Program-made: the position numbers | Assembly (NCBI GenBank): GCA_044356295.1 | Contig: JBIKWN010000004.1 | Location: 1-64,000 of the forward strand | DNA length: 64,000 nucleotides | Direction of reading: 5' to 3' | Origin: Bdellovibrionota bacterium | GTDB taxonomy: Bacteria > Bdellovibrionota_C > UBA2361 > JBIKWN01 | Shown: one piece after another, positions 42,301-48,300 of the stretch | How positions within the stretch are numbered: the stretch's first letter is position 1 | Layout of the letters: each line of letters opens with the position of its first letter

Positions 42301-45300
42301 GATTGCATATTCTTGGTAGTTTAATATGGAAATAGATTCATCGGTACACTCAAAAGTTACAGCACTATTTAGCGGTAACCCGCAAACGATACATGATGCC
42401 TTAGGGATTGCCTTTAAGAAGTTATCTAAAAATGAAGTACAGGCAACAATGCCTGTTGATGAAAGAACCAGACAGCCTTTTGGGATCCTTCATGGTGGTG
42501 CTTCAGTTGTATTGGCAGAATCCTGTGCTTCAATTGGTGCTTGGCTCAATATTGATGAAAACAAATATAATGCTCTTGGAATAGAGATTAACGCTAATCA
42601 TCTTCGTTCTGTTACTCAAGGTATCGTTACCGCATCAGCAACTCCGCAACGACTTGGTAAGAGAATTCAAGTATGGAATATCAGTATTACAGATGAAGAT
42701 CAAAATGAGATTTGTATTTCAAGATGCACAATCGCAGTGGTAGAGAAATAAATTCATGAATGAAAGTAACGATACGAAGCAGTCAAAGAAAGAATTTATT
42801 AGAAACGCGTGGAGGCTTATCTATCCTTACTGGCTCTCTCGTGAATGGAAAATAGCATGGATACTTTTAGTAACAATTGTATCCCTGAATCTTGGGATCG
42901 TGTATGTAACTGTTTTAATAAATACATGGTATAATGCATTTTATAATTCACTACAACAAAAGAATTTTAATGATTTTAAATCATTAATAATTGAATTTTG
43001 TTATTTGGCTGGAATATACATAGTTGCTGCCGTTTACCGTCTCTATTTGCAGCAAATGCTCACCATTAAATGGAGGAGTTGGCTCACCGATAATTTTCTT
43101 ACGATCTGGCTCACGCAGAAGAGATTTTATTCCCTTGAGTTATTTAAATTTGGAACAGATAACCCCGATCAACGAATTGCCGAGGATCTTCGAAGTTTAA
43201 GTGGAGGAACATTATCTCTCGCACTTGGATTTTTATCTTCTGTCACGACGCTCATTTCATTCTTCATGATTCTTTGGAACTTATCTGGACCGATTGAATT
43301 AAATCTTTTTAATACATCAGTAGTTATTCCAGGCTATATGGTGTGGGCTGCGTTTCTCTATGCTTTCTTTGGAAGTATTCTTACGCATGTTATTGGTAAA
43401 AAACTTATAGTACTCAACTTTAACCAACAAAAAAATGAAGCTAATTTTCGTTATTCACTAGTCAGAACGAGGGAGTATGCAGATGCTATAGCACTGGCTG
43501 AAGGTGGTTCTAAAGAGTTATCAAATCTTAAAATATCATTCTCTTCTATCCTCAATAATTGGTGGATGATAATGCGGTATCAAAAACGCCTTACTTGGTT
43601 TACTTCAGCGTACGGACAAGCCGCTGTTATTTTCCCCCTCGTTGTTGCTGCACCACGATACTTTAGCGGTGCAATCGAACTTGGTGCTCTTATGCAGATA
43701 TCTTCAGCATTCGGAAGAGTTCAAGATGCACTTTCATGGTTTATTGATAGCTATACAGGGCTGACTGAATGGAAGGCAAGTCTTGATCGATTACTTGGAT
43801 TCCAACGTGCTGCAAACATTGCTGATGAATTACAAAATAAAAAAGATCTCACCATTACACGGTCTGATACTATAGAAGGTGTGCTTTCATTATCACTTCC
43901 AGATGGAAGAATATTAAAAGATAAATTGAATCTTAAAATTAATCCAAAAGAGCATACCTTTATTTCAGGAAGGTCTGGTTCTGGAAAAAGTACATTATTT
44001 AGAGTTTTTGCCGGACTGTGGCCGTTTACTTCTGGAAAAATTCAACTCCCTGAATCTGATACATCATTATTTTTCCCGCAGAAGCCTTATTTGCCGATAG
44101 GCACCCTGCGTTCAGCATGTTTTTATCCAAAAGATGAAGATAGCTCTTTTGATGATGACATTGTTGGATATTTTCGGGAATTAAATTTACCACTAACGAA
44201 AAATGATCTTGAGCAATCAAAAGATTGGTCAAAACATCTTTCTCTAGGCGAGCAACAACGCATTGTTCTCATCCGTGCAGTAATTTTAAAACCTAATTGG
44301 CTGTATCTCGATGAAGCTATGGCAAGTCTTGATATACAAAGCGAACAAGCTGCGAGACTTTTTTTACAGAAGTATCTACCTCATGTTTCCATAGTTGAGA
44401 TAGCGCATCATTCAAATATTGAACAAATAAATACGATTAATTTTTAAGAAGGAAGCATACTAGGTAATTGTAGATTGTTCATGATTCGTTCAACGCAACA
44501 ACGTTAAAAGCTTTCAGTTTCATGAAAGAGCAAAAAATATAAAAAGATGCCACAGGCTTATTTTATTAACCACCTGAAATAACTCAGAAAAATAAAATTT
44601 ATTAGTCAAAAAACTGATAAATTTCGAATACTTATCATAATAATAATCATCTAATATGAGACACTGTAAACCTCAGCATGGAAGCCGAAAAACTTTACCA
44701 ATCACTTTATACAATTCGTCATTTCGAGACGCGTCTTCTTGAGTTGTTTGGAGAAGGAAAGTTAAACGGGACTACTCATGCTTACATTGGACAAGAAGCA
44801 AATGCAGTTGGAGTTATCACGCATCTCCAAAGCGATGATGTTGTTTGGAGCAATCATCGATGTCATGGACACTACCTTACCTATACGAACGACCTTGAAG
44901 GATTAGTCCACGAGCTTGTTGGTACCTCAAAAGGAACATGTGCTGGTAAAGGTGGCAGTCAACATCTTTGTAAAGGAAATTTTTTTACGAATGGAATTCA
45001 AGGAAGCATTACTGCAGTAGCAGCAGGGATGGCACTTTCTCAAAAGCTATCAAACTCAAAAGCAATATCGACTGTTTTTATTGGTGATGGAACGCTCGGT
45101 GAGGGGCTTGTTTATGAAGTCATGAATATTGCATCACTTTGGAAACTTCCGATTCTATTTGTACTTGAACATAATCAATATGCTCAGAGCACTCCAGCAA
45201 CATTGGAAGTTTCAGGGATACCAAAACTTCGACCTGAAAGTTTTGGTATTAAAACATTTGAAATAGATTCAAATGACATTAATGAAACATATTTATTTGG

Positions 45301-48300
45301 GCAAGAAATAACAAATTTTGTTCGGACCAATCGGCTACCAGCATTTGCAATAATGCACACCTATCGGCTGTGTCCACACAGTAAAGGTGATGATTTTCGC
45401 GACATATCAGAGATCGAACACTGGAAAACAAAAGATCCAATTGGATTTGCTCAAAAACTTTTAGCGAAAGAAGCGATCAATCAGATAGAAGAATCTGTTC
45501 ATGAAAGAATGCACAGTGCTGTTCAAGATGCATTATCTTTATTTGAGCAGCAAAAACTTGCTCGAAAGGAGGCAATGACATGAATAATCAGAACAAAAAA
45601 AGATTTGTCACTGTTCTGAATGAAACGCTCCATACTTTATTTGAAGAGCACGAAAATGTAGTACTTATTGGTGAAGACTTACTTGATCCTTACGGTGGAG
45701 CTTTTAAAGTTTCAAAAGGACTATCGACTGCTTATCCAGAGCGAGTCATTACTTCACCCATCAGTGAAGCCGCAATTGTTGGCATTGGAGCAGGCCTCGC
45801 AATAAAAGGGTTTTTGCCAATAATTGAAATTATGTTTGGTGACTTTACGACACTTGCTTTTGATCAAATAGTGAATGGCATCTCTAAGTTTCGTTCGATG
45901 TATAATAATCAAATAGAATGTCCTGTGATGATACGAACGCCTATGGGTGGTGGACGTGGATATGGTCCAACGCATAGTCAAAGTTTAGAAAAATTCTTTT
46001 TTGGAATACCACATTTCTTAGTTCTTGCTCCTCATACGATTCATGATGTTGAATCATTTTATAAAAATGCACTGTTAGATCCTCGTCCGAAACTAGTTGT
46101 AGAAAACAAATTACAGTACGCAGAATTTGTTGAATTCGGGAGTGATAAAATTAAAGATTTTTTTGTAAGCTATTCAAATACTCCTTTTCCAACAGCAACA
46201 CTATCTCTTGCTCAACAGAGCAAAGTCGATGCAACTATTATCACGTATGGTGGTATGGTTTCAGTTGCGCTGGAGGCAGCAGAAAAATTATATCTTGAAG
46301 AAGAGAAAATTGTTGAAGTTCTCGTGCCGACAATGATATCGCCCTTTCCCCTAAAAGATATCGAAAATTCAGTTCGTAAAAGTGGAAAAGTATTAATTCT
46401 GGAAGAGGGTACGAAAACAAATGGATTTGGAGCTGAAGTCGCTTGTCAGATTCAGGAACACCTTTTTAGCTGCTTAAAAGCTCCTGTAAAGAGAATAGCA
46501 AGCCCCGATGACTGTATTCCTAGCTCTAAAGCATTAGAAATCCACTTTTTACCTCAGGTAGATCTGGTTTATCGTGAACTCCTCTTATGAAAAAAGTATT
46601 TATTCCTGTTCAAGATGCAAATAGCACTACAGCAATTATTCGAGAGTTGCTCTGTAAAGACGGTGATGTTGTTACAAAAGGGCAAGTGATAGCTCATGTA
46701 GAAACATCGAAAGCTATCTATGATGTGAACTCCTCTGGAGCTGGTCGAATTATTTATAATACGAAGTTACATGACGAGCATTCATTTTCAAATCCAATTG
46801 CTTGCATCGCTGAAGAGGGAGAAGATTTTGAAACAGTACGGGCGAATTTTTATTCAGGAAAATCAGAAGAAAAAACTACTGAAGTAAAAGCTACTAAAAA
46901 AGCAAAACTTCTTGCTGAAACTATAGGCATACATCTTTCTGATATAATAAAAGAGGGGATACTTTCTGAAGAAGATGTAATGCAATTTGCAAAAGATCAA
47001 GGAATTGCTACCCCCAAAGCTCCGATTTCTTTTTTAAAACCAAATGAATTTCCGCCGCGACTTACAAGAGTACTTGTTATAGGAGCGGGCAACGGTCTGG
47101 CACAAGTTGCAGATATTATGAGTCATGTTGCTCATCAGAGAATTGTCGGTTGTGTCGATGATAGTAAGGACCTTCATTCAAATGAGCCTTTTGGAGTACC
47201 TCTGATAGGGACGATTGCTGATATTGAACGTCTCTATAACGAAAAGAAATTTGATGCAGCTGTTATAGCAATTTCATCGAACGTCAATGTGCGCCGTATG
47301 TTGTTTGAAAAAATTAAAAATTTTGGGATCCCATTTGTAAATGTTATCGATCCATCTACCAGAATAAATAAATTTTCCATATTAGGTGAGGGGAATATTA
47401 TCTGTAGTTTTGTACATGTCGGAACATATACATCTCTTGGCGATAACAATTTTATAAGCGCGCATTGTAGTATTGATCATCATAATATTTGGGGTTCACA
47501 CATCACCCTTGGGCCCGGATGCCATTTTTCAGGTCGAGTAAAAGTGTGTGATTCAGTGAAATTTGCTACTGGAATTTTTGTCCAAAACGGCATCGAGATT
47601 GGAGCTGAATCAACAATTGCATCAGGTGCAGTTATTACAAGCTCTATTCCTGAGAAATCATTGGTGAAGACACAAGTGTCGCATGTGATTGTTCCAAAAT
47701 GAGCTCGATCGACTCAATGCTCCATTCAGACTGAGTATCTAATCCAATCTGTTCAATAGTCACACAAGTTACTGATGATGGCTCGCTAAAATAGAGCTCT
47801 ACGTTATTTTCTTGTTTTAAACTAAAAAGCGAATTATTAATCCGTTCAACAGCACCTCTCCACCATGGTTCTCTGTATAAGAGGATGTCTTTAGTACAAG
47901 CTCCATCTCTTGAAGAACCATTAAAGACTTGAACACCACGTGGAAAATCGCTGATAAAATTCCGAAGCGTGATGGCAATTCCTTGAACACTGAGAGGTTC
48001 AACAAGGTCAAATGATACCCATTCACCTCCATGCTGAGTTCTTGGGACAGTGCTCCAACGGGTTTGTTTTTTTCGTTCTAAAATTATTGGAAGCATTGAT
48101 TGATTTGTTGAACCCCAAAGATTTTTGATTTCGTTTTTTGTAAGAATTATTCGATTAGTATCGTTGAGTGGAGGAAGAGGAAGTTTCGATTTAATGATAT
48201 ACAAGGACGGTGAATTTAAGAGAGGGCTTATCTGAAGTCTTTTGTCGCTTACTGATGTATGAAAAAAAGTATCAATAGGAGCAGTCAGATATAAAAAAAC

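Follow-up and report, generated by a model that had tools for sequence, protein, structure and literature searches.

To our knowledge, the left-handed beta-helix (LbH) enzymes of the PglD/PerB/VioB class are all acyl-CoA users. In acetoin dehydrogenase, the C-terminal part of AcoC is not known to be of the chloramphenicol acetyltransferase (CAT)-like type, and the product is still acetyl-CoA. A precedent for a lipoyl arm that feeds a non-CoA acceptor is found in QncN/QncL/QncM, as described in passages of PMC6335953. A further group, the AviB1/AviB2 and Pau11/Pau12 pairs, has a proposed role in adding a C-C branch to a keto sugar (excerpts of PMC4425429).

Here, we analyse a three-gene cassette in a 64,000 nt stretch of DNA from a Bdellovibrionota bacterium (the window). 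We see roughly an even chance that the cassette specifies a small machine, similar to a 2-oxoacid dehydrogenase, that ends in an acylated glycan precursor rather than acyl-CoA, the acyl group presumably passing directly from lipoyl arm to amine. Our literature search found no publication describing direct lipoyl-to-amine acyl transfer; if the reading is correct, glycan building blocks would be acylated straight from a 2-oxoacid, without acyl-CoA.

A predicted lipoyl-bearing acyltransferase encoded beside an E1 pair

The cassette consists of three plus-strand ORFs (window positions 44678–47702), with neighbours sharing 4 nt at each junction (Table 1). These lie exactly where the genome-wide survey's note had placed a cassette of E1 alpha, E1 beta and 'E2' genes; the product of the third gene is here named E2x.

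Table 1. Features of the cassette and its surroundings (window coordinates).
Feature	Position	Strand	Basis or remark
E1 alpha, ThDP-binding subunit, 301 aa	44678..45583	+	Pfam E1_dh 1.5e-45
E1 beta, 336 aa	45580..46590	+	Pfam Transket_pyr + Transketolase_C
E2x, 371 aa	46587..47702	+	lipoyl domain, PSBD, PglD_N, left-handed beta-helix acyltransferase
Lipoyl domain, residues 1-75	46587..46811	+	Biotin_lipoyl in 40/40 family members
K42 codon, in VETSKA	46710-46712	+	lipoyl lysine
Peripheral-subunit-binding domain (PSBD), residues 98-142	46878..47012	+	profile from 28 loci
PglD_N-type nucleotide-binding lobe, residues 160-245	47064..47321	+	Pfam PglD_N in 34/40 members
LbH, residues 250-360	47334..47666	+	Hexapep in 40/40 members
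H298 codon	47478-47480	+	aligns with PerB His141
Indel of ~3.2 kb holding the whole cassette	44448..47643	.	same-genus genome G039 lacks the cassette

When the PDB was searched by sequence, the closest solved structure to E1 alpha was human PDH E1 alpha (6.5e-32), and E1 beta matched the E1 beta subunits of PDH and BCKDH (1e-45 to 1e-39). Across 32 cassette E1 alphas, GDG136-138...E164-x-N166 and H234-S235 are kept in at least 95%; the same is true of E63, F86/F89 and H132 (in PTHSQS) in 32 E1 beta sequences. The ThDP-activating Glu corresponds to E63 of E1 beta, His128 beta to H132 and His271 alpha to H234; a role for the two histidines in the reductive acetylation of lipoate is reported in the cited portion of PMC2663715. 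By sequence, the cassette E1s retain the positions with which lipoate is reductively acylated. Identity between the window's E1s and cassette E1s from many phyla is 42–54% (alpha) and 38–52% (beta), as against only 27–33% between cassette E1s and the four other E1 paralogues of the source genome. Since cassette E1s are closer across phyla than to paralogues in the same genome, we regard them as a dedicated orthologous group.

Pfam matches in E2x are to Biotin_lipoyl (residues 16–56), PglD_N (161–243) and Hexapep, with no match to the CAT-like core (2-oxoacid_dh, PF00198) at E<=0.01. The NCBIfam model TIGR03570 (NeuD/PglB/VioB) covers residues 162–361 (1.3e-38; 132.6 bits, below the cut-off of 160.8), and the match to the AcoC model is confined to the lipoyl part (residues 2–93). 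By sequence, E2x matches the PglB acetyltransferase domain 4m98 (8.8e-17) and PerB 4ea7 (1.4e-14) in the PDB; in the PerB H141N mutant 4eaa, the Asn falls opposite H298 of the SIDHHN motif of E2x (the H141A mutant chain gives the same alignment). An AlphaFold2 model of E2x (pLDDT 91.0, 40-row alignment) was compared with solved structures using Foldseek, giving matches to 4m99, 4eaa, 4eab and 4ea7 (E ~5e-13 to 2e-12, TMt 0.87–0.88, rmsd 1.4–2.1 Å), and TMt values of 0.82–0.89 to PglB-ATD, PerB and PglD, and 0.57–0.79 to VioB and Pcryo_0637. The C-terminal half of E2x thus has the PglD_N plus LbH fold in the model. Between the lipoyl domain and this half lies the PSBD: Pfam E3_binding matches 11 of 40 family members at E<=0.01, and the 28-locus profile retrieves the PDH E2 PSBD 1w4i (1.3e-9), 2eq8_C (4.7e-7) and many others from the PDB. 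The architecture that had been claimed (a lipoyl domain and a PSBD, with a PglD/PerB/VioB-type LbH replacing the E2 core) is confirmed by Pfam, the PSBD profile and Foldseek.

The family had been described as rare, with 74 proteins. That count was reproduced, but it is a minimum: when 1.84e9 representatives were searched exhaustively with phmmer, 180 members passed E<=1e-30. Nearly all of the 150 matches listed are 355–403 aa long, with the domain at ~155–380. Stand-alone proteins of 200–230 aa that carry the family signature also exist.

Gene neighbourhood across carriers and in the source genome

Gene neighbourhoods were compared across 37 non-archaeal loci. Gene calls in these loci are crude (longest ORFs with a GC3 filter), so that acyltransferases or E3 fragments may have escaped Pfam; the tblastn search for E3 and canonical E2 is independent of the calls. 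In 31 of the 37 loci, E1 alpha/beta genes adjoin E2x and share its strand (28 upstream, 3 downstream). Five further loci end at a contig edge (an E1 beta fragment in one, no upstream DNA in four), leaving L005 as the sole locus with enough DNA and no E1 (5 kb upstream examined). Linkage of E1 alpha/beta to E2x is almost obligatory. Neither an E3 nor a CAT-type E2 core was found in any locus scanned (tblastn and Pfam); with the source genome's own E2s as queries, only the lipoyl part was matched.

Glycan genes lie within ~6 kb in ~30 of the 37 loci. These include a DegT aminotransferase in 14 loci, in 10 of which E2x is the only acyltransferase recognisable by Pfam; GFO_IDH_MocA (WbpB-like) adjoins the cassette in eight loci. 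No glycan genes were found nearby in five of the 37 (L012, L016, L023, L024 and L026).

In the source genome the cassette stands alone, with three canonical E2s and E3 candidates encoded elsewhere. The survey's note had listed the neighbouring genes. The cassette is an indel between a convergent ABC-transporter gene and a 557-aa membrane-protein gene, and in G039 both flanks are contiguous and intact. Given this contiguity in a cassette-less genome, the flanking genes are not functional partners. Neither a GC anomaly nor flanking repeats were found at the indel. The two neighbours noted as 'unknown large proteins' resemble GT-C-type membrane glycosyltransferases, which we take only as a lead. 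On another contig lies a DegT-glycosyltransferase (GT) pair orthologous to cassette-adjacent pairs elsewhere; its DegT is 63% identical to that beside the cassette in L041, and 47–48% to those of L008–L011. The DegT-GT(-GFO) module lies beside the cassette in L008 and L041; at least six genomes of the order that lack the cassette have the module too, with no LbH acyltransferase next to it.

The context bears on an alternative that we consider unlikely, namely that the LbH domain acts as an analogous E2 core and moves the acyl group off dihydrolipoyl-lysine onto the CoA thiol, supplying an unusual acyl-CoA to other enzymes. The five glycan-free loci would suit it, as would the CoA-related genes that lie upstream in the window (a 4HBT thioesterase, an ABCD-type transporter and an enoyl-CoA hydratase); those genes, however, are contiguous with the downstream ones in the cassette-less genome of the same genus, and so are not partners. 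The source genome already has its three canonical E2s, and 10 of the 14 loci with DegT showed no second acyltransferase by which such an acyl-CoA could be used.

Active-site residues and the proposed acyl route

Active-site residues were mapped on PerB and VioB. As previously claimed for a smaller set, K42 and H298 are invariant and H299 is near-invariant, here in 40 sequences, as is E39 (invariant); the lipoyl Lys is present in 175 of 176 fused sequences. The base His, H298, is found in all 37 main-family rows and in the three outliers. Also kept in 37/37 are G303 (Gly140-equivalent), S315 (of the Ser/Gly oxyanion pair), R236 (Arg72-equivalent) and the Asp of the ribose-binding DD; the PglD_N lobe keeps its Gly-rich loop, D191 and R236 without exception. 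The family signature reads GDNNF(285-289)...SIDHHN...S315...S346-G347, in which N287, N288, F289, H299 and S346 are new invariant residues relative to the class I enzymes.

Two parts of the class I site differ. Firstly, the PerB Asn aligns with S291 of E2x, a position that is Ser in 34 of 37 rows, Ala in three and Asn in none; this strictly conserved class I residue holds a water that bridges the sugar amine (PMC9271549, in part). Secondly, the Gly182 position (VioB numbering; pantothenate/adenine turn) is Ala in 31 and Ser in six of the 37 main-family rows, and never Gly, while G347 (Gly184 equivalent) is kept in all 37; the C-terminal Gly-x-Pro (Gly199-x-Pro201 in VioB), which responds to CoA, is absent at 362–364 in all 37 rows. 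These CoA turns are placed by inference, because a constant offset was used, fixed at His135/141, at Gly153/159 and at the G-x-G turn. The main family has, on these alignments, kept the catalytic His and nucleotide-binding residues, and replaced the class I Asn and apparently the CoA-holding Gly/Pro turns. Most CoA contacts in LbH enzymes are backbone contacts, and so the loss of a few conserved residues is no proof of lost CoA binding. Three distant fusions (P0073–75) carry a fully canonical class I domain, including the Asn, the His-Asp dyad and GVPAK (which, in P0074 and P0075, aligns with the PerB C-terminus); a lipoyl fusion can thus go without the altered site.

For transfer to CoA, one may cite the invariant G347 and the fact that LbH enzymes of the same class bind CoA in a cleft next to their catalytic His (PMC9271549, in part). 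The invariant Asp and Arg of the nucleotide-sugar lobe and the loss of the CoA-linked Gly182 and Gly-x-Pro argue against it.

The direct lipoyl-to-amine route would run as follows: (i) E1 (alpha2beta2, ThDP) would decarboxylate a 2-oxoacid most like pyruvate-type substrates and, tethered via the PSBD, reductively acylate lipoyl-lysine K42 of E2x; (ii) the acyl-dihydrolipoyl arm would swing into the donor cleft at the subunit interface of the same protein's presumably trimeric LbH domain, taking the place of the acyl-CoA pantetheine arm in the stand-alone enzymes; (iii) H298 would deprotonate the amine of a nucleotide-linked amino sugar held in the PglD_N lobe (a hydroxyl seems the less likely acceptor), and this amine would then attack the thioester; and (iv) a housekeeping E3, encoded elsewhere, would re-oxidise the arm.

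This CoA-free reading is partly supported, and all the computable evidence fits it. In its favour we count the E1 linkage, the lipoyl Lys, the E1 His residues, the lack of an E2 core or E3 in the loci, the retained base His and nucleotide residues, the lost CoA turn, and the 10 of 14 DegT-bearing loci with E2x as only acyltransferase. Against it we count the acyl-CoA use of the LbH class, the canonical P0073–75 fusions, the five glycan-free loci, the cassette-less genomes with DegT-GT(-GFO), the solitary cassette of the source genome, and the stand-alone signature proteins.

The same lipoyl-to-LbH chemistry could serve another acceptor, be it a hydroxyl (NeuD-type O-acylation), an amino lipid, a polyamine or a peptide, especially outside glycan clusters, as in the source genome. 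We think this improbable: the nucleotide-binding residues are invariant, DegT lies near the cassette in 14 of 37 loci, and the source genome's DegT resembles those of L041 and L008–L011 (identities above). It would accord with the replaced class I Asn, with the non-glycan neighbours in five loci, and with the NCBIfam name NeuD/PglB/VioB, which takes in O-acetyltransferases.

It is likewise improbable that the LbH domain works as a conventional sugar acyltransferase dependent on acyl-CoA, with the E1 pair adding a two-carbon branch to a keto sugar, as proposed for AviB1/AviB2 and Pau11/Pau12, and the lipoyl-PSBD part acting only to tether E1 to the sugar-binding enzyme or as an oxidant. PDH-like alpha/beta pairs without an E2 do occur in sugar pathways (excerpts of PMC4425429), C-4 hydroxyethyl-branched octoses occur in Gram-negative polysaccharides (PMC4753412, in part), and keto-sugar-forming enzymes (GFO_IDH_MocA, dehydratases) are common near the cassette. 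Conservation of the lipoyl Lys and of the E1 lipoate-acylation His residues nevertheless argues that the arm is acylated; an acyl group on the arm needs an exit, for which the cassette has no other transferase, and the changed LbH residues are those of the donor site.

Comparison with known systems

Like AcoC, E2x accompanies an E1 alpha/beta pair as its lipoyl-bearing 'E2'; its C-terminal fold differs from that of AcoC. The AviB1/AviB2 and Pau11/Pau12 pairs are likewise PDH-like E1 alpha/beta pairs and lie in sugar-biosynthesis clusters; in the accounts cited above, they work without a lipoyl protein and are proposed to make a C-C branch instead of an N-acyl group.

With the E2s of PDH, OGDH and BCKDH, E2x shares an N-terminal lipoyl domain whose modified Lys sits in a beta-turn, a PSBD after a flexible linker, and a gene directly after those of a heterotetramer-type E1 alpha/beta. 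It differs in that (i) a non-homologous LbH acyltransferase replaces the CAT-like core, (ii) a trimer is expected rather than a 24- or 60-mer, (iii) the cassette has no E3 gene, and (iv) the likely acceptor, as proposed here, is not CoA.

From PglD, PerB, VioB, PglB-ATD and Pcryo_0637, E2x is set apart by its fusion to a lipoyl arm and PSBD, its sub-cut-off TIGR03570 score, and other residues at the positions of the Asn, of Gly182 and of the C-terminal Gly-x-Pro. It shares with them the bilobal fold (Rossmann-like N-lobe plus LbH) and catalytic His, along with the class's Ser/Gly oxyanion position, Gly-rich loop and nucleotide-site Asp and Arg.

Finally, in the glycolicacyl-ACP system of QncN/QncL/QncM (and SclQ1-4), as described in PMC6335953, a lipoyl arm is charged by a ThDP enzyme, and the acyltransferase attached to it hands the unit on to an acceptor other than free CoA, as we propose for E2x. 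There the acyltransferase domain is described as an E2-type catalytic domain and the acceptor is an ACP; E2x has an LbH fold and a nucleotide-binding lobe.

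Domain architecture and family of the E2-like protein

The three open reading frames lie where the genome-wide survey's note had placed them, all on the forward strand, with neighbours overlapping by four bases (see table). The product of the third, E2x (P0001), shows no Pfam match to the CAT-like core that is the usual E2 catalytic domain. The NCBIfam NeuD/PglB/VioB model spans E2x residues 162-361 (1.3e-38), scoring 132.6 bits, below its cut-off of 160.8. The best PDB sequence matches are the PglB acetyltransferase domain 4m98 (8.8e-17) and PerB 4ea7 (1.4e-14); the alignments place H298, the base histidine of SIDHHN, opposite PerB His141, as seen via H141N and H141A mutant chains. 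An AlphaFold2 model from 40 sequences reached a pLDDT of 91.0, with disorder confined to residues 92-98. Foldseek matched this model to 4m99, 4eaa, 4eab and 4ea7 (E 5e-13 to 2e-12, TMt 0.87-0.88, rmsd 1.4-2.1 A), and further to Pcryo_0637, PglD and VioB; the N-terminus resembles lipoyl domain 2dnc.

Coordinates of features in the window and in loci of other genomes (L numbers)
Feature	Sequence	Position	Strand	Remarks
E1 alpha ORF	window	44678-45583	+	Pfam E1_dh
E1 beta ORF	window	45580-46590	+	Pfam Transket_pyr + Transketolase_C
E2x ORF (P0001, 371 aa)	window	46587-47702	+	Pfam Biotin_lipoyl 16-56, PglD_N 161-243, Hexapep
Three-gene indel (cassette)	window	about 44448-47643		between convergent genes; from comparison with same-genus genome G039
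Polytopic membrane protein 1 (557 aa)	window	47644-49317	-	no Pfam family; C-terminal discoidin-like region
Polytopic membrane protein 2	window	49311-51533	-	no Pfam family
Merged E1 alpha + beta (676 aa)	L012	10966-12996
Merged E1 alpha + beta (658 aa)	L041	10292-12268	-
Radical-SAM/SPASM gene	L014	6724-7806
Radical-SAM/SPASM gene	L021	about 6900-7700
Radical-SAM/SPASM gene	L040	6430-7437
Split transketolase	L014	13770-15576	-	Transketolase_N; Transket_pyr + Transketolase_C
Split transketolase	L021	13781-15584	-	Transketolase_N; Transket_pyr + Transketolase_C
Giant protein (2472 aa)	L016	11344-18762	-	DUF4082/fibronectin-III/galactose-oxidase-like
Giant protein (2314 aa)	L025	12649-19593	-	DUF4082/fibronectin-III/galactose-oxidase-like

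Between the lipoyl and left-handed beta-helix (LbH) domains lies a segment that is, by its sequence matches, a true peripheral-subunit-binding domain (PSBD): a profile of residues 98-142 from 28 loci retrieves the PSBDs of pyruvate dehydrogenase E2 proteins from the PDB (1w4i, 1.3e-9; 2eq8_C, 4.7e-7; many others), and Pfam E3_binding is recognized in 11 of 40 family members. The same profile matches residues 40-76 of a 388-aa 'alpha/beta-hydrolase (202)' chain in PDB 7qjm (E 5.5e-4), which may be an AcoC-like protein with a PSBD. A complex prediction with three LbH domains (155-371) and one lipoyl domain (1-80), run without controls, gave an ipSAE of 0.00, which counts neither for nor against an interaction. 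A promoter and terminator scan of 42000-48200 found nothing above shuffles. The stretch is present in lake-water metagenome DNA runs only; no RNA runs containing it are listed.

The survey's figure of 74 proteins was reproduced by word-indexed search, but does not hold as the size of the family: when the LbH half of E2x is run exhaustively with phmmer against 1.84 billion representatives, 180 match at E<=1e-30. Among the 150 matches listed, nearly all are 355-403 aa long with the domain at about 155-380. At least 120 residues precede the LbH half in 176 of 224 aligned sequences; of these 176 fused sequences, 175 have the lipoyl Lys and 171 a Glu-x-x-Lys pair. The family signature also occurs, with no lipoyl arm attached, in about 16 sequences of 200-230 aa; since several of these begin with Met, split forms probably exist. 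Three distant fusions (P0073-75, 23-27% identical) contain a fully canonical class-I domain. One 865-aa protein from outside the window (P0105) consists of four tandem PglD-like N-lobe + LbH units, each with a catalytic-position His and a C-terminal G-x-P-A-R motif.

The active site and a proposed route of acyl transfer

According to excerpts of the VioB paper (PMC9271549), class-I sugar N-acetyltransferases conserve (i) the catalytic His, an Asn holding a water on the sugar amine, and a Ser/Gly oxyanion position, (ii) nucleotide-side Gly residues, an Asp/Lys, and Arg72/Lys74, (iii) a Gly182-x-Gly184 turn, which through its backbone binds CoA at the pantothenate carbonyl and the adenine amine, and (iv) a C-terminal Gly199-x-Pro201 turn that shifts conformation upon CoA binding. 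These residues were mapped onto E2x via the printed PerB alignment, anchored at His135/141, Gly153/159 and the G-A-G turn, and read from a 40-row family alignment (37 main-family rows plus P0073-75).

The main family keeps the catalytic His, G303, S315, D191, R236 and G347 in all 37 rows, and G316 in 25. The class-I Asn position is occupied by Ser (34/37) or Ala (3/37), the Gly182 position by Ala (31/37) or Ser (6/37), and none of the 37 rows has a Gly-x-Pro at 362-364. Newly invariant are N287, N288, F289 and S346; H299 is found in 36 of 37. The canonical-type fusions P0073-75 retain Asn or Asp, the His-Asp dyad, and GVPAK, which aligns with the PerB C-terminus. As judged from this alignment, the changes fall on the donor (CoA) side of the site and leave the acceptor (nucleotide) side conserved. 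Such a change is what would be expected of a site with a lipoyl arm as donor, though it is not proof of one because most CoA contacts are backbone contacts. Beside this altered donor side, the view of the LbH domain as an analogous E2 core that still produces acyl-CoA seems improbable.

The best-supported reading, whose chances we regard as evenly balanced, is lipoyl-armed transfer to a nucleotide-sugar amine. E1 would put an acyl group from a 2-oxoacid onto K42, the lipoyl-lysine of VETSKA; the arm would deliver this group into the cleft between LbH subunits; there, H298 would activate the amine of a nucleotide sugar bound by the PglD_N lobe; and a housekeeping E3 would re-oxidize the arm. 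We speculate that acyl groups with no CoA pool are a more attractive cargo than plain acetyl, for which a dedicated complex seems wasteful.

Linkage to E1 and gene neighbourhoods

Linkage was examined in 37 loci: 34 family loci (one genome per species; L035, a non-member, was excluded) and three from the window's taxonomic order. The family loci were retrieved with an alignment query against genome contigs; a single-protein query returned none. E1 alpha and beta lie directly upstream of E2x on the same strand in 28 of the 37 loci and directly downstream, also on the same strand, in three (L012, L017, L018). One locus (L031) has an E1 beta fragment at the contig edge, four (L006, L013, L030, L042) lack upstream DNA, and in one (L005) E1 is absent from the 5 kb upstream. 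The two subunits are merged into one ORF in L012 and L041.

In Verrucomicrobiota, Acidobacteriota, Chloroflexota, Actinomycetota, Planctomycetota, Pseudomonadota and others, the cassette E1s share 42-54% (alpha) and 38-52% (beta) identity with those of the window, while the four other E1 paralogues of this genome are only 27-33% identical to cassette E1s; on these identities, the cassette E1s are a dedicated orthologous group. Their nearest relatives are PDH-type enzymes. Among 32 cassette E1s, the ThDP motif GDG136-138...E164-x-N166 and H234-S235 of alpha, and E63, F86/F89 and H132 (PTHSQS) of beta, are kept in at least 95%. Matched by motif and offset rather than by a printed alignment, we infer that these correspond to His271 alpha, Glu59 beta, Phe85 beta and His128 beta of the Geobacillus enzyme, of which an excerpt of PMC2663715 assigns His271 alpha and His128 beta to reductive acetylation of the lipoyl group. 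With these residues kept, it is distinctly improbable that E2x is a scaffold on which E1 branches a keto sugar, by analogy with AviB1/B2 and Pau11/12 (portions of PMC4425429), while the LbH domain takes acyl-CoA. For lipoyl-armed transfer, E3 would come from elsewhere: tblastn with the genome's own E3 and E2 proteins and Pfam found E3 and the canonical E2 core absent from all loci scanned; outside the cassette, this genome encodes three canonical E2 cores along with four Pyr_redox_dim proteins.

Neighbouring genes were called by taking the longest ORFs, filtered by GC3 where a locus is GC-rich, and scanned with Pfam within about 6 kb. Glycan genes occur in about 30 of the 37 loci; none were found within that distance in L012, L016, L023, L024 and L026, and L028 and L030 are too short to judge. 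The same chemistry with a hydroxyl or non-sugar acceptor is an unlikely alternative to transfer onto a nucleotide-sugar amine. A DegT aminotransferase is encoded in 14 loci (L006, L008-L011, L014, L020-L022, L029, L033, L034, L040, L041), in ten of which the Pfam scan recognized no acyltransferase besides E2x; L041 has two DegT genes, E2x and one Hexapep enzyme. A WbpB-like GFO_IDH_MocA gene adjoins the cassette in eight loci (L001, L002, L004, L007, L019, L022, L032, L041). Five of these (L001, L002, L004, L007, L032) share a block of DUF354, Bac_transf, GFO_IDH_MocA, E1 alpha, E1 beta and E2x, followed by an epimerase, a FemAB-like GNAT, an unknown gene, a nucleotidyltransferase, a GHMP kinase and SIS. 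A radical-SAM/SPASM gene immediately precedes E1 alpha in three loci, which come from Acidobacteriota and from the window's own order (two phyla); its product might be involved in preparing either the E1 substrate or the sugar.

Other surroundings recur. A split transketolase, with a cytidylyltransferase and a methyltransferase close by, lies a few genes from the cassette in L021 and L014 (the latter from a cultured strain, Acanthopleuribacter pedis KCTC 12899), and is reminiscent of a QncN/L type C2 donor system. Giant proteins are encoded immediately downstream of the cassette in two Actinomycetota MAGs. In Gaiellaceae and other Actinomycetota MAGs (L023, L024, L026), the cassette has conserved non-glycan surroundings: upstream are genes for a subtilase and a RodZ_C-domain protein, with an unknown gene between them, and downstream follow response regulators and DNA polymerase III tau.

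In this genome the cassette does lie outside any sugar cluster, as the survey reported, and comparison with a genome of the same genus (G039, 86% complete) explains why. Contig C38 of G039 preserves the gene order of the window from the enoyl-CoA hydratase through the thioesterase and the ABC transporter to the two membrane-protein genes; it has no trace of the cassette, and the ABC gene adjoins the 557-aa gene. Because these flanks are contiguous without it, the cassette is a three-gene indel, and the thioesterase and transporter are therefore not its partners. Its GC content is not anomalous, and neither direct nor inverted repeats of the mobile-element kind flank it. Its distribution is patchy: E2x is found in 4 of 91 genomes of the order (this one included) and in neither of two same-genus genomes, and the other three copies are 30-33% identical to that of the window. 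In tblastn of the window's neighbour proteins against 35 loci, matches were limited to a generic epimerase and an ABC ATPase; thus, the window and these loci have no partners in common. The 3' ends of E2x and of the gene at 47644-49317 have 59 nt in common. The two membrane proteins have 9 and 12 hydrophobic segments, and their ESM-Atlas neighbours (clusters with PMT_2 + F5/8-type-C, and with PTPS_related or YfhO) provide leads towards GT-C-type glycosyltransferases.

Two DegT genes are present in this genome, whose sole full-length NeuD/PglD-type protein is E2x. An operon on contig C69 encodes an unknown 422-aa protein, a DegT and a Glyco_trans_1_2 glycosyltransferase, with no acyltransferase found nearby. 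The DegT is 63% identical to a cassette-adjacent DegT of L041 and 47-48% to those of L008-L011; for the glycosyltransferase, identity is 40% to the L041 counterpart and 36% to that of L008. The operon is a weak candidate for an in-trans source of the E2x acceptor, since the module is also present in cassette-less genomes without an adjoining LbH enzyme. The pair was rejected as cassette-specific: it also occurs in cassette-less G039 (80% identical), G041, G042, G029, G030 and G080.

Comparison with known systems

In full-text literature (subscription journals and supplements lie outside this), we found neither a lipoyl-PglD/NeuD fusion nor lipoyl-dependent acylation of sugars described; PMC4875605 was set aside as irrelevant, 'lipoyl' there meaning lipid decoration. 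That the cassette encodes a CoA-free, lipoyl-arm N-acylation machine—the first 2-oxoacid dehydrogenase complex on a trimeric LbH core, with an N-acylated nucleotide sugar as product—is a tentative proposal, with somewhat less than an even chance of being right. If true, surface glycans would be decorated with acyl groups straight from 2-oxoacids that have no acyl-CoA pool, by a machine that would spread as a self-contained three-gene module. This would be a new biosynthetic logic of N-acyl diversity in O-antigens, capsules and protein glycans, and a compact three-gene tool for glyco-engineering. The idea is directly testable, the proteins being small and soluble.

It would also add a footnote to two textbook rules: (i) that 2-oxoacid dehydrogenase complexes hand acyl groups to CoA via a CAT-like E2 core, and (ii) that LbH sugar N-acyltransferases use acyl-CoA as acyl source. 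We take AcoC to be another non-CAT E2. A precedent for a lipoyl arm supplying a non-CoA acceptor is QncN/L/M, as described in portions of PMC6335953. Compared with E2 proteins, E2x has three of four defining features and is missing the core; compared with class-I sugar N-acetyltransferases, it has the fold and the base but departs in the Asn, the CoA turn and the model score. E2x would therefore work like an E2 and like a class-I N-acetyltransferase while being a strict member of neither: an example of non-homologous core replacement in one of the best-studied multienzyme complexes.
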